In this document: positions 12,825 through 15,098 of the stretch, in pieces
How the letters are laid out: every line of letters begins with the position of its first letter
Position numbering within the stretch: position 1 is the first letter of the stretch
Origin: Oscillospiraceae bacterium
GTDB lineage: Bacteria > Bacillota > Clostridia > Oscillospirales > JAAYXM01
Assembly (NCBI GenBank): GCA_015068085.1
Contig: SVLF01000005.1
Coordinates: 3,684 to 67,683 of the forward strand
DNA length: 64,000 nucleotides
Direction: 5' to 3'
Notes under the pieces: generated by a model
Told to the model about the DNA's origin: nothing
Seen by the model: only the letters and a program-made list of their open reading frames with translations
The model's database searches: none
Position numbers and translations under genes: made by a program

Positions 12825-15098
12825 ATGGGAATTGCAGCAGTAGAATATCAAAAATATATAGATATATGTAGGAAAATTGAAAATGATGAAGAAATATCCG
12901 ATATACGCCGGGAAATATCGCGGCTTGAGGGTGAACTTAAGAAAGCTGAGAAAGAATACAGGCAGATAGCCAATGAATCGGATGCGGTTATTGACAGTAT
13001 GGTGGACTCGGATATAGCTGAAAGGTTTGGTGATGCTTCAGCCGGACATAAAAATGAATTGGAAAAGTTGGAAAAGAAGAACAATTCTTACATAGCTGCG
13101 CTTACGCCGGAACAAAGAAGATATCCGGAAATTCTGCGTGAAAACAGGGAGTTTGTTGCGTCTTTTCACAAATACAGGGAACAGTATGAGAACGATGCAA
13201 GTACTCTGTCGGAAATGTTCCCGCAACGCGATATAAAATCGGATATTGAAGGTTGGTTCAAAGAAATACTGTATGGACACAGCACAAAGTGGGAGTTTGA
13301 CGAGATTAAAAAAATGGACATACCCGGACCGGTAGAGTCTGATGGACATACCTATGGCAGAACCGGTGTGTTCAGCAGGATTAAGGATATCTTCTATCCG
13401 TTTGGGTATAACAATTCCGTACCGTCGCACAAAACAGTATACATACTCTCGGGGATATCCTATATTCTTCCTGTTGTACTTGTGTTGTTGTGGTTATTAG
13501 GAAAGATTCCGGTATTGTTGACTGTTGTGGGAGCCTCGCTTGTGTGGAGTATGTGCTGCTCCTATCTCGGTGTGAGAATGGATGGGGATCCTCTTGAGGT
13601 GTTAGGAAAAGATCGGGCGTTGCTGTATCACTTCGCATTGAACGGAGATACGTTGGTGGAAGAATATACACGCGATGTTTTGAACATACCGGAAATGGGA
13701 CCTGAGCAGCTTGAAAAAGAGCTTGCGCAGGAGTTGAATGCCTTTAAGGAACGAGAAAATGAAATTCGAGCTGAACTTAAGAAACTGGATGCGCAATATG
13801 CTGATATAAAGAATGAGCAAGGTCAGATTGATATGTTGTTCGGGCAGCTTGAAGCAGATGCGCAGGGAGTACGTCTGTCACGTGCACTGAATAAGGCTCC
13901 GAAAGATCGTACAGACCATGAAAATATGATAGTTCGTGAGTATGAGGAAAAACGTCTCCGCGCGATCGAACGCCGCAATGCTGCCGAACAGAAGTTCAAA
14001 AATAATATCAGTGCATCATCCGCATTGAAGTCCGAACTTTGGGATATGCCGGATAAAGTTAAGGCTTATGAAAAGGATATGCAGCGCCAGATACAAGTGG
14101 CATGGGGAATTGCTATTCTGCTTGAGGGAGAAAGTGCGCTTAATAAACTTCGCCACCAGGTGGATTCAGATGCAGAGCTTGAGGCGACAGAGCGTGAAAA
14201 ACTCCGTAACAAATATCTCAAAGAACGCCGGTGCCGACGTGATAAGGCACAGCAACGCTGTGATGTGCTGCGCAATCAGCTTGGTGAGGTTCAGCGACAG
14301 CTGGGAGAGGTTGAGGCGTTGCGCCATAAAGAAATGGAAGATGCGCGTGCGTTTATCTCCGGCGTGGAATCGCGTATGGAAATGAGCAACGAGGAAACTA
14401 AGTGTGTGCTCAGTCCCTGCACGTTTGTGATGAGCAGTGATGCACATCACGGTCCTTGCGGACCGAAACTCAGCAAGTTTGTCCACAATGGCAAACCGAG
14501 CGTACTGCTGTATACGCTTGATGGAAGTAAGACTGATGCAACCACGCAGCTGTCACCGCTGCTTGAGCGTATGCTGCTTAGCTTCTTTACTACCAACAGC
14601 ATGCTCACTGTATGTCCGCAAAAAATTGTAGATACCATCACAGGAGCCAAGAATTTCAAATCAAAGGATTATGAAAACTTGGTGGAGGTTGTCGAAACTT
14701 CGAATCAGATACGCAAGCTGACTGATTCTCTTGACGAGCTTGCTGAAATGATAGTAACGAACGGAGTACGGTCGCTTGACGAACTCAACGAACGGCGTGT
14801 GAATGACTCCGGCGTTCCGGTGGCAAATAACGTGGTATACTTTGTTCTGCCGAGTGATTCAGGAGCAGCTTCGCGCGTGATGAGCGAAGAAATGTGGCGT
14901 CTGGTAAGGCGCGGTCCCAACTATGGATTTTTGCCAATATTCCTCATTGAGCGTCGGTGCTGGGAGGAGTATGAAAACAATGAGGATAAGTTCAGGCATT
15001 CATCAGATTTCTACACCTCTTTGTTTGGCATAATTGATTCTGAGCAGATATATGATGTTGACTTGACGGCATGCACGCTCAAGCCCCACAATAGATAA
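12825..15098 (+). CDS. hypothetical membrane-anchored coiled-coil protein with a C-terminal degenerate (Walker-less) FtsK/SpoIIIE-like domain (P1 of the operon)
   Basis: 757-aa ORF with AGGAG 7 nt upstream. TM hairpin at aa ~205-249 (VYILSGISYILPVVLVLLWLLG / IPVLLTVVGASLVWSMCCSYLGV). Charged heptad-like stretches at aa ~20-130 and ~290-510. The C-terminal ~240 aa follow the FtsK order, but with LDGSKTDAT in place of GxxGSGKS and VYFVLPSD in place of hhhhDE. Confidence 0.6.
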   Translation: MGIAAVEYQKYIDICRKIENDEEISDIRREISRLEGELKKAEKEYRQIANESDAVIDSMVDSDIAERFGDASAGHKNELEKLEKKNNSYIAALTPEQRRYPEILRENREFVASFHKYREQYENDASTLSEMFPQRDIKSDIEGWFKEILYGHSTKWEFDEIKKMDIPGPVESDGHTYGRTGVFSRIKDIFYPFGYNNSVPSHKTVYILSGISYILPVVLVLLWLLGKIPVLLTVVGASLVWSMCCSYLGVRMDGDPLEVLGKDRALLYHFALNGDTLVEEYTRDVLNIPEMGPEQLEKELAQELNAFKERENEIRAELKKLDAQYADIKNEQGQIDMLFGQLEADAQGVRLSRALNKAPKDRTDHENMIVREYEEKRLRAIERRNAAEQKFKNNISASSALKSELWDMPDKVKAYEKDMQRQIQVAWGIAILLEGESALNKLRHQVDSDAELEATEREKLRNKYLKERRCRRDKAQQRCDVLRNQLGEVQRQLGEVEALRHKEMEDARAFISGVESRMEMSNEETKCVLSPCTFVMSSDAHHGPCGPKLSKFVHNGKPSVLLYTLDGSKTDATTQLSPLLERMLLSFFTTNSMLTVCPQKIVDTITGAKNFKSKDYENLVEVVETSNQIRKLTDSLDELAEMIVTNGVRSLDELNERRVNDSGVPVANNVVYFVLPSDSGAASRVMSEEMWRLVRRGPNYGFLPIFLIERRCWEEYENNEDKFRHSSDFYTSLFGIIDSEQIYDVDLTACTLKPHNR

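Follow-up and report, generated by a model that had tools for sequence, protein, structure and literature searches.

Membrane proteins of the P1 family carry a predicted, catalytically dead FtsK-fold domain and probably form the membrane part of a split FtsK/EssC-type motor

The protein that we call P1 is encoded in a 64,000-nucleotide stretch of Oscillospiraceae bacterium DNA (the window, meaning the whole stretch that was analysed), and its relatives in Clostridia and Bacilli form a family that has no name so far. It joins a transmembrane hairpin and a long helical stalk to a C-terminal domain with the predicted structure of an FtsK-type ATPase that has lost its catalytic motifs, and no other part of P1 is as strongly constrained as this dead domain. 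P1 is almost always accompanied by a soluble FtsK/EssC-like ATPase that is live (P3), and by toxin-carrying proteins. The likeliest explanation is therefore that it supplies the membrane half of a motor divided between two proteins, in a type VII-like system for toxin export in gut Firmicutes that has not been described before. Namely, we hold with moderate confidence that P1 is the membrane subunit of an FtsK/EssC-type secretion motor whose parts are made as separate polypeptides. The features on which this reading draws are collected in Table 1.

Table 1. Coordinates (window positions) of P1, its parts and the genes that accompany it
Feature	Position	Strand	Remarks
Promoter-like site TTTACA-17-TATACT with TG, 5' of P1	12735..12763	+	consensus match only
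P1 gene	12825..15098	+	757 aa; founding member here of unnamed membrane-protein family
P1 N-terminal all-helical domain, aa 1-162	12825..13310	+	no known family
P1 transmembrane hairpin, helices aa 202-224 and 230-253, 5-residue loop	13428..13583	+	
P1 helical stalk, aa 256-517	13590..14375	+	helices 262-285, 293-346, 364-517
P1 C-terminal catalytically dead FtsK-fold domain, aa 522-757	14388..15095	+	from predicted structure, fold searches, dN/dS
P-loop position TLDGSKTD, aa 564-571	14514..14537	+	no glycine-rich Walker A; family columns variable, gapped
GVRSLDELN, aa 647-655	14763..14789	+	G647, I/L651, N655 family-conserved
Walker B position NVVYFVLPSD, aa 669-678	14829..14858	+	strand kept, acidic pair not conserved
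GFLPIF, aa 701-706, the core strand that follows Walker B	14925..14942	+	G701, P704 unchanged in all 54 sequences
P2, conserved partner, helical, 241 aa	15112..15837	+	homologous to N-terminal ~200 aa of cargo proteins
P3, soluble FtsK/EssC-like ATPase	15916..18129	+	live domain aa 120-330, then ~400 aa without family match
P4, 836-aa candidate cargo	18156..20666	+	P2-like N-terminal domain
P5, 273 aa, N-terminal hydrophobic anchor	20680..21501	+	last cassette gene

The P1 gene is preceded by a ribosome site, AGGAGA, 7 nt 5' of the ATG, and its overall dN/dS against two orthologues is 0.08. The open reading frame and all motifs quoted for it in the original prediction, which had been made from the letters of the DNA alone, lie where that prediction had placed them, and the two adjacent hydrophobic helices that it had expected at nt ~13437-13571 (aa 205-249) are the two helices of the hairpin in the AlphaFold2 model. 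Judging by this hairpin and by the lack of a signal peptide, both large parts of P1 would be cytoplasmic. The N-terminal domain contains heptad-regular segments (aa 22-56 and 78-133), gives no FHA match within its 162 aa and shows no similarity to the P2 family. In the full-length AlphaFold2 model (mean pLDDT 84.8), the last helix of the stalk runs unbroken for 154 residues and includes a hydrophobic patch, VAWGIAILL (aa 425-433), that is invariant. For the N-terminal domain and the stalk, a fold search with this model returned only long-coiled-coil proteins at TM about 0.1, and PHROGs and PADLOC gave for P1 only coiled-coil noise, such as a tape-measure match. About 220 aa of heptad-like sequence had been foreseen here, and this is borne out for aa 295-350, about 400-434 and 484-511, where the register score lies above the 99th percentile of shuffles, but not for aa 351-399 and 435-483, where it does not exceed that level. 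The stalk is made of long helices with coiled-coil segments, rather than of a uniform 220-aa coiled coil; by a rough estimate, its length in the family ranges from 57 to 312 aa.

The AlphaFold2 model of the C-terminal domain on its own (236 aa) has a pLDDT of 90.4 and a pTM of 0.90, and the fold that it predicts is specifically FtsK-like and not just RecA-like, in line with what had been read from the order of motifs in the last ~240 aa. In particular, domains of these four proteins, and no others, head the results of four fold searches. The top 37 Foldseek matches in the PDB are all TcpA, EccC, FtsK or EssC, with E-values from 1.5e-6 to 1.6e-3. In VIA, the best nine of 48,161 chains all belong to the FtsK clade: the domain aligns with D1 of T. 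curvata EccC at Z 13.9-14.0 (rmsd 3.7-3.8 over 204-206 residues), with FtsK at Z 12.4-12.9 and with the D2/D3 domains of EccC/EssC and TcpA at Z 10.0-12.1, as against Z of at most 9.5 for the generic RecA folds of HerA and RecA/Rad51. Among the solved DUF domains, that of B. subtilis YukB (9qks_H) gives Z 9.4 and that of EccC5 (8rin) Z 8.1-8.7, so that the P1 domain is closer to live D1 domains (Z 14) than to these DUF domains (Z 8.1-9.4), a point against the split-motor reading. Every named neighbour of the domain in the ESM Atlas is a PF01580 cluster (TM 0.61-0.68), and the independent full-length model returns the same fold matches. That said, Pfam finds no PF01580 (FtsK/SpoIIIE) match in the domain at E up to 10, Pfam and NCBIfam together give P1 no sequence match to the FtsK fold, phmmer and the P1-family profile find nothing among the PDB sequences, BLASTP finds no link between the domain and P3, and hhalign of the P1 family with the P3 family and its two halves stays at a probability of 2% or less. 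As no sequence method joins the P1 domain to FtsK, the homology rests on predicted structure and on motif positions assigned by eye. An SMC/Rad50-like reading of P1, with its long helices and an ATPase head, was also considered and rejected: the head is of the FtsK clade and not ABC-type, and the N-terminal half is missing.

The motifs named in the original prediction fall on the matching elements of the model, in which the order is that of FtsK: strand, P-loop position and helix, followed by the Walker B strand and by the core strand after it. The first of them, VLLYTLDGSKTDAT (aa 560-573), covers a strand (559-563), a loop and the start of a helix (572-591); SLDELNERR (aa 650-658) lies on a helix (651-660), and VVYFVLPSD (aa 670-678) and GFLPIFLI (aa 701-708) on strands 669-674 and 702-709. 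By eye and by spacing, GVRSLDELN is the positional counterpart of GVRNMEGYN in the FtsK of the same genome. The motifs themselves have decayed. At the P-loop position P1 has S-K-T (aa 568-570) with the glycines missing, possibly a vestige of GK[ST]; in the gapped P-loop columns of the family, 4 of 40 sequences have the K and 10 of 53 the T, and G....GK[ST] is absent from all 37 further family members in which Walker A was sought. At the Walker B position the NVVYFV strand is followed by LPSD, which departs from the hhhhDE motif, and D678 is found in 9 of 29 sequences. The claim that no nucleotide-binding residues are present is thus correct in that none is conserved in the family, and too strong for P1 itself, with its S-K-T. 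Since both positions vary across 54 relatives, we take the domain to be dead. Its dN/dS, from the two orthologues, is 0.034-0.047 vs 0.085-0.105 elsewhere in P1, and H554, K557, N591, D603, N655 and W713 are among its conserved surface residues.

The two orthologues, which are 83% identical, were all that a word-indexed homologue search yielded, and the wider P1 family was recovered by an exhaustive search of 1.84 billion proteins. The C-terminal domain occurs there in 55 cluster representatives, nearly always as the C-terminal end of a transmembrane protein of 600-1000 aa, and none of the 55 is a fused P1-P3 form. Related loci were collected by way of the P3 family. The order P1-like, P2-like, P3-like is kept in 33 of the 39 loci that have enough upstream DNA and in five more with filters off (38 in total), and it also holds in loci L004, L005, L008, L009 and L010; genes of the P1 and P3 types are almost always neighbours. 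The P2 family (~240 aa) has no Pfam model. Proteins encoded downstream in related loci reuse the P2 fold as their N-terminal domain, and these cargo heads lack a C-terminal tail that P2 proteins have when they stand alone. Some of the downstream proteins also carry a toxin domain, namely a PF03496 ADP-ribosyltransferase in three related loci and a PF15644 glutamine deamidase in one; in P4 of the window, no recognisable toxin domain was found. The matches of P3 to NCBIfam models are led by EccCa (TIGR03924, 6e-27), followed by EssC (TIGR03928, 3e-22) and FtsK (2e-14), all of them below the equivalog cut-offs.

The predicted complex of the P1 C-terminal domain with P3, a check proposed together with the original prediction, scores 0.43, which reaches the mark weakly, vs 0.00 for the best of three controls; at least 88% of contacts agree between runs, with a partner pLDDT of 78 or more. 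Of 80 solved complexes, 58 scored at or above this mark, as did 2 of 110 mismatched pairs, and scores that reached it at 0.60 or less include only 7 of the 80 solved complexes and both passing mismatches, so that a pass in this band is often wrong. The prediction thus hints that the C-terminal domain may dock onto P3. The solved multi-domain structures of EccC/EssC could by themselves lead the predictor to such a pass. If P1 is the membrane half of a motor, one can picture its work as follows. P1 would oligomerise, probably into hexamers like other FtsK-fold domains, the hairpins of the oligomer would form or line a membrane passage, and a ring of dead domains at the end of the helical stalk would recruit and position the P3 ring. 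P1 would then play the part that is held in single-chain EssC/EccC by the degenerate DUF domain, the hairpin and the stalk, and ATP hydrolysis by P3 would drive the export of P2 and of P4-type cargo.

Would the same observations fit another role for P1? Esx substrates are recognised in EccC/EssC through their C-terminal signal, which binds to the degenerate D2/D3 domains, and the dead domain of P1 could likewise be mainly a receptor for a substrate or signal, which binds P2 or the P2-like head of a cargo protein at the membrane, while P3 engages P1 elsewhere, e.g. at the stalk or the N-terminal domain. The P1 domain does match the EccC D2-D3 structure crystallised with a signal peptide (4n1a, Z 12.0-12.1), the linkage of P1 with P2 (36 of 39 loci) is no looser than that with P3, and the tail found on stand-alone P2 but not on the cargo heads also speaks for this role. 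Against this stand the weak pass of the P1-P3 prediction and the place of the receptor domain in EccC, which is the last in the motor chain and not membrane-proximal (PMC11154593). We regard this role as unlikely, if worth keeping in mind; it is compatible with the split-motor reading. Less probable still is an intracellular conflict or defence system, with P1 as a membrane sensor or effector scaffold, P3 as an NTP-driven switch and the toxin-domain proteins as abortive-infection effectors. FtsK/HerA-type ATPases are known in defence systems, P3 matches the SspH, mad8 and HerA models of PADLOC, and some Atlas neighbours of the P1 domain are partly viral. The spread of the cassette is patchy as well: it was not found in 31 other species of the family or in 400 sampled genomes of the phylum, and its left neighbours differ among close relatives. 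However, P1, P2, P4 and P5 have no PADLOC match, the best ATPase matches of P3 are secretion ATPases, and a free small helical protein whose fold also heads polymorphic toxins is the WXG/LXG pattern of type VII systems (PMC3482391).

Finally, P1 and P3 might move DNA, in the manner of conjugative coupling proteins such as TcpA of pCW3, pELF TraC/TraD or Streptomyces TraB, and we consider this very improbable. TcpA is indeed rank 1 in Foldseek for the P1 domain (E 1.5e-6), and pELF has the same split into a two-TM protein with an ATPase domain and a soluble FtsK-like ATPase (PMC13492992). That said, the membrane-anchored domain of P1 is dead, P3 gives no FtsK gamma or alpha domain match, the variable downstream genes code for toxin-domain proteins, and the called neighbours in the window and in L002-L005, L009 and L010 include no gene for a relaxase, an integrase, replication or any other transfer function. 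In the window, the cassette lies between fucose genes and purA.

Returning to P1 as part of a secretion motor, one can go a step further and ask whether the cassette is a new type VII-like exporter of Firmicutes, in which the motor is split into a membrane pseudo-ATPase (the P1 family, whose helical stalk is very long) and a soluble two- or three-domain ATPase, a ~200-aa P2 targeting fold replaces WXG100/LXG, and equivalents of YukD, EssB and EsaA are missing. We put this forward tentatively, with slightly less than even weight. P1 would in that case be the only membrane-channel component, which would make the cassette a minimal T7SS-like translocon. If true, its three-gene core of a dead-domain anchor, a small helical protein and a soluble ATPase would be among the simplest FtsK-driven protein exporters, and the pseudo-ATPase "DUF" module of EssC/EccC would be able to act as a separate polypeptide. 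The cassette would also be a small system in which to ask what the degenerate membrane-proximal domain does in type VII motors and how a soluble ATPase ring couples to a membrane passage. It would, moreover, give a role to an unannotated family linked to ADP-ribosyltransferase and deamidase toxins, whose hosts are Clostridia of gut and rumen and some Bacilli (Sporosarcina, Carnobacterium, Fundicoccus), groups in which systems for interbacterial antagonism are poorly mapped.

How does the cassette compare with known systems? Its gene clusters resemble those of the ten subtypes T7SSa-j in that they are Firmicute clusters in which small helical proteins, and polymorphic toxins with heads like those proteins, accompany an EssC-related ATPase. 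However, TsxC is a single membrane-bound chain in each of the ten subtypes (Garrett, Higginson and Palmer 2024, PMC11217815), and a WXG100 protein, TsxA, and a ubiquitin-like TsxB occur in nearly all of them (PMC11217815), whereas the cassette has a soluble ATPase, a separate dead-domain anchor and the P2 family, with no ubiquitin-like gene. Going by the descriptions in that paper, it fits no published T7SSa-j type. The host genome (88% complete) gives no match to WXG100 (PF06013), YukD (PF08817), YukC (PF10140) or LXG; among 14 P2-like sequences, a single one touches the WXG100 model, with 22 bits where the cut-off is 27.3, and no LXG match above cut-off occurs in 150 sampled genomes of the phylum. 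The T7SS-derived cassettes known as "mobile versions of T7SS", whose ATPase is distinct and YueA-like, share with the present one a single active domain in a multi-domain FtsK-like ATPase (Zhang et al. 2012, PMC3482391), and no dead-FtsK anchor is described for them in that paper. TraC and TraD of pELF from Enterococcus faecium, of which TraC has two TM helices and a C-terminal ATPase domain and TraD is soluble, have been modelled as stacked hexameric rings (PMC13492992). Compared by description, they are like P1 and P3 in pairing a two-TM protein that ends in an ATPase-fold domain with a soluble ATPase of FtsK/VirD4 type, but TraC belongs to a conjugation operon of a linear plasmid, has 420 aa and no long stalk, and is described with an ATP-binding domain (PMC13492992).

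The closest likeness is with the motor chains of EssC/YukB (T7SSb) and EccC (T7SSa). The comparison with EssC/EccC was apt from the start, as their DUF domains, although essential, have a degenerate ATPase fold and bind no nucleotide (PMC11154593), and come after a TM hairpin and a stalk (PMC11154593, PMC12637312); in YukB the order is N-domain, TM-containing stalk, DUF and ATPases (PMC12637312). P1 has the same order of N-domain, two TM helices, stalk and dead FtsK-fold domain, its C-terminal domain has its nearest structures in EccC, EssC and FtsK, and the models nearest to P3 are those of EccC/EssC. There are differences as well. The N-domain of P1 is helical, and not FHA as in EssC of T7SSb, and its stalk of about 260-270 aa compares with a DUF match that in YukB begins ~56 residues past the TM segment (aa 360; TM 249-304, PMC12637312). 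Where EssC/EccC carry the DUF and three FtsK domains in one chain, the split here separates the dead domain from the first live one; EccCa/EccCb are split after D1, whereas P1 ends after its dead domain and P3 is separate with one live domain. As in EssC/EccC, a live FtsK domain and then a degenerate one follow, but here they do so within P3. With its anchor, stalk and dead domain, and with P3 apart, P1 is therefore laid out like the N-terminal half of an EssC/EccC chain, but encoded by a gene of its own.

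The original prediction that the C-terminal part of P1, a 757-residue membrane protein, follows the FtsK fold is borne out by structural modelling, in that four fold searches agree on FtsK, EccC, EssC and TcpA. Namely, the AlphaFold2 model of this C-domain, computed from a 54-sequence alignment, has a pLDDT of 90.4 and a pTM of 0.90, and its top 37 Foldseek matches in the PDB are all TcpA, EccC, FtsK or EssC (E 1.5e-6 to 1.6e-3, TM by query 0.39-0.54). Upon VIA re-alignment, the best match is to residues 430-680 (D1) of T. curvata EccC (Z 13.9, rmsd 3.8, 206 residues), with FtsK at Z 12.4-12.9, D2/D3 of EccC/EssC and TcpA at 10.5-12.1, HerA at 9.4 and RecA/Rad51/Rho at 8-9; the solved DUF domains score lower than the best of these (YukB Z 9.4, EccC5 Z 8.1-8.7). 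A VIA search of 48,161 representative chains with no Foldseek prefilter puts only members of the FtsK clade among its top nine (Z 10.0-14.0), and in the ESM Atlas all named neighbours are PF01580 clusters (TM 0.61-0.68). What is more, an independently built full-length P1 model yields the same structural match list. Two further Atlas clusters of hypothetical proteins of about 600 aa have the dead-domain fold (TM 0.67-0.69), and among the members that carry a taxon label roughly one in two is viral (Uroviricota), a hint of relatives in phages or prophages.

Sequence searches with the C-domain gave no match in Pfam even at E up to 10, no credible match in NCBIfam, none among all PDB sequences with phmmer or the family profile, and none to P3, the soluble ATPase of the same cassette, in BLASTP; in hhalign, the profile of the family scored a probability of 2% or less when set against the P3 family. 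Run exhaustively with P1 aa 515-757 over 1.84 billion cluster representatives, HMMER (E up to 0.001) defined a family of 55 proteins that is not covered by any Pfam, NCBIfam, PADLOC or PHROG model and is not informatively named in the sources searched. The domain usually forms the C-terminal end of a protein of 600-1000 aa and is preceded by a hydrophobic block. The exceptions are a handful of short entries that look truncated, a 3526-aa match that is probably spurious and P0044, an 850-aa family protein with the order reversed, its dead domain (aa 142-378) preceding the hydrophobic block (593-706).

Is this domain truly unable to bind nucleotide? All P1 motifs quoted in the original prediction were found at the residues and nucleotides it gave, and in the model those said to follow the FtsK order map to the structural elements expected of them, namely strand 559-563, then loop 564-571, helix 572-591 and the strands 669-674 and 702-709. 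Nucleotide-binding residues had been called absent and, indeed, neither the P-loop nor the Walker B position is conserved in the family: the loop at the former is variable and gapped, no conserved acid follows the Walker B strand, and G....GK[ST] occurs in 0 of 37 additional members from named genomes. A Walker A-like G..G.GK[ST] string is present in just one of the 55 proteins, P0026, at aa 604 of 615, i.e. at the extreme C-terminus, past the matched domain. P1 itself has S-K-T at 568-570, which is not conserved in the family and could be a relic. The residues that are conserved are H554, K557, P558, Y563, N591, D603, G607, F611, G647, I/L651, N655, G701, F702, P704, F706, W713 and Y743. Compared by eye, and without statistical support, several P1 motifs follow the order and spacing of those in the same genome's housekeeping FtsK, taken from locus L011. 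The C-domain is dead, yet it is the most constrained part of P1: against two 83%-identical orthologues, its dN/dS is 0.034-0.047, as compared with 0.085-0.105 for the N-domain, TM region and stalk. Identity to the orthologues is 91-94% for the C-domain, close to the 92-93% of P3 and the 95% of the helical protein P2; it is 83% for the anchored protein P5 and 70% for P4, the candidate cargo.

Full-length P1, modelled from a 30-sequence family alignment, has a mean pLDDT of 84.8 and a pTM of 0.45, the latter being expected because the chain is elongated. Relative to composition-matched shuffles, the heptad-register score exceeds the 99th percentile in aa 22-56, 78-133, 295-350, about 400-434 and 484-511, and does not in the stretches between them. 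Of the coiled coil of about 220 aa proposed originally, a long helical stalk survives, but not a uniform coiled coil, as the register breaks; since the score is high only in segments, "long helical stalk with coiled-coil segments" fits P1 better. Across the P1 family the stalk, estimated from the last hydrophobic segment to the domain start, spans 57 to 312 aa, with the P1 subfamily near the long end. Mid-way along the predicted 154-residue stalk helix lies a hydrophobic patch, VAWGIAILL (window 14097-14123, P1 aa 425-433), which is invariant in the three orthologues and might serve as a hinge, bind a partner or touch the membrane.

Features of P1, its cassette and related loci
Feature	Position	Strand	Basis or counterpart
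P1 ORF, 757 codons	12825-15098	+	window sequence
Promoter-like TTTACA-17-TATACT (with TG), ahead of P1	12735-12763	+	consensus match only
P1 all-helical N-terminal domain	aa 1-162		AlphaFold2 full-length model
P1 poorly ordered linker	between aa 1-162 domain and membrane helices		AlphaFold2 model
P1 membrane helices, five-residue joint	aa 202-224 and 230-253		AlphaFold2 model
P1 stalk helices (the last a single 154-residue helix)	aa 262-285, 293-346, 364-517		AlphaFold2 model
P1 C-terminal alpha/beta domain	aa 522-757		AlphaFold2 model
P1 IVD603			MVDPK of housekeeping FtsK, by eye
P1 G647-VRSLDEL-N655			GVRNMEGYN of housekeeping FtsK, by eye
P1 NVVYFVLPSD			IVIVIDELSD of housekeeping FtsK, by eye
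P1 GFLPIFLIERR			GMHLIIATQRP of housekeeping FtsK, by eye
Cassette order: P1; P2 (241 aa); P3 (737 aa); P4 (820-836 aa); P5 (273 aa, N-terminal anchor)			
Head + toxin proteins, 3' of P3-type ATPase	L010:13452-16697, L030:11311-14493, L033:11305-14565, L016:10110-12443		

In the window and two orthologous contigs, P1 is the first of five cassette genes, and purA always comes next after the cassette. AGGAGA is the P1 ribosome site, and the fucose-utilisation operon stops upstream of the promoter-like site; in one orthologue another gene lies to the left, which marks the left edge of the cassette. Directly past the stop codon of the sugar-kinase gene come an imperfect inverted repeat that contains GC and then CTTTTGTT (window 12655-12705). 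From its sequence, this stretch looks like a terminator parting the fucose operon from the cassette; it is absent from the terminator-scan output. Neither P1, looked for in 31 other species of the same taxonomic family, nor its C-domain, looked for in 400 sampled genomes of the phylum, was found, which makes the cassette an accessory element of sporadic occurrence. The order of a P1-like protein, a protein of about 240 aa and an ATPase of about 740 aa is kept in the related loci L004, L005, L008, L009 (the Sporosarcina sp. FA9 chromosome) and L010, at 24-42% identity in the domain. Scanning species-representative genomes for the P3 family gave 48 loci, in Lachnospiraceae, Oscillospiraceae, Hungatella, Eisenbergiella, Dorea, Ruminococcus, Tissierellia, Erysipelotrichaceae, Sporosarcina, Fundicoccus, Carnobacterium and others. 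In 39 of these a P3-family ATPase is present and preceded by no less than 3.5 kb of sequence; an ORF upstream on the same strand encodes a P1-type domain (E below 0.001) in 33 of the 39, and 36 have a P2-type gene. With HMMER filters off, 5 more show a weaker P1-type C-terminus on the upstream TM protein, with E-values that refer to a very small search space. Both genes are missing from one Lactobacillaceae locus.

Some loci depart from this order. Nine (L020, L025, L029, L031, L035, L036, L042, L043 and L052) have an extra gap of 650-900 nt between the P1-like and P2-like genes, which could hold an additional gene of about 250 aa, and in L057 and L058 an ORF of about 245 aa lies ahead of the P1-like gene, in place of that gap. 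Moreover, a CHB_HEX_C_1/Fn3_assoc protein stands 10-15 nt directly upstream of the P1-like gene in two distant loci (L004:8037-9986, L008:1781-4003); the two proteins are homologous (E 1e-16) and might add a further component to some cassettes.

P3 begins with a conserved extension of about 120 aa, followed by a live FtsK_SpoIIIE domain (aa 120-285, E 3e-32), and its best curated matches are T7SS EccCa (6e-27), EssC (3e-22) and then FtsK (2e-14), all far below equivalog cut-offs. Some P3-type ATPases are 1142-1169 aa long, with an extra live FtsK domain before the two-domain core (L010:10001-13429, L019, L030, L033). P2-type proteins share homology with one another and with the N-terminal ~200 aa of large downstream proteins, in agreement with HMM matches; in small-database comparisons, P2 matches P4 at 2e-10 in L004 and 3e-13 in L009, and the L008 P2 matches the window P4 at 4e-5. 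Behind such a P2-like head, three related loci carry a PF03496 ADP-ribosyltransferase (E about 1e-18) and one a PF15644 glutamine deamidase (2e-14). The window P4 has no recognised toxin domain; its C-terminal part holds a perfect tandem 12-residue repeat, FVSPATDWIDKK x2 (window 20223-20294).

How might P1 and P3 work together? EssC/YukB and EccC run from an N-domain through a TM hairpin within a stalk to a DUF domain and the ATPase domains, the DUF having a degenerate ATPase fold, unable to bind nucleotide and yet needed for secretion (PMC11154593, PMC12637312). The layout of P1 is exactly this N-terminal order, and P1 ends where the live ATPase would start. Read most simply, the motor would be split between "D0" and "D1": P1 would supply the passage through the membrane together with a dead-domain ring, and P3 would dock onto that ring. 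We infer the docking, as well as the oligomeric state, the cytoplasmic topology and export. The docking of P3 on the P1 domain, proposed originally, is weakly supported by a complex prediction, whose score of 0.43 reaches the tool's mark (best of 3 controls 0.00). Of 80 solved complexes 58 pass this mark, as do 2 of 110 mismatched pairs; with scores of 0.60 or under, the passes are only 7 of the 80 and both of those mismatches. At least 88% of contacts recur between runs and partner pLDDT is at least 78; as EccC/EssC multi-domain structures have been solved, the pass could simply echo them.

The main alternative to a docking platform is that the P1 domain acts as a substrate receptor, as in D2/D3 of EccC; another is that the whole system is an intracellular defence device. 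A DNA translocase, akin to TcpA or the pELF TraC/TraD pair (PMC13492992), is disfavoured because the called neighbours of the loci inspected include no DNA-processing genes and because the cargo is toxins.

As for the split motor itself, our literature search turned up no account of a stand-alone anchor that carries a dead FtsK domain. EssC-like ATPases without TM segments are already on record, in the "mobile versions of T7SS" of Zhang et al. 2012, mainly from Gram-negative lineages (PMC3482391). The canonical T7SS markers WXG100, YukC, YukD and LXG were not matched in the source genome (88% complete), and only one of 14 P2-like sequences gave a sub-threshold WXG100 match. The cassette resembles T7SS in having a free small helical protein, the same fold heading polymorphic toxins, and an EssC-like ATPase adjoining (PMC3482391, PMC11217815). 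By the descriptions of Garrett et al. 2024, all ten subtypes T7SSa-j have a membrane-bound single-chain TsxC (PMC11217815); the cassette is not among these subtypes.
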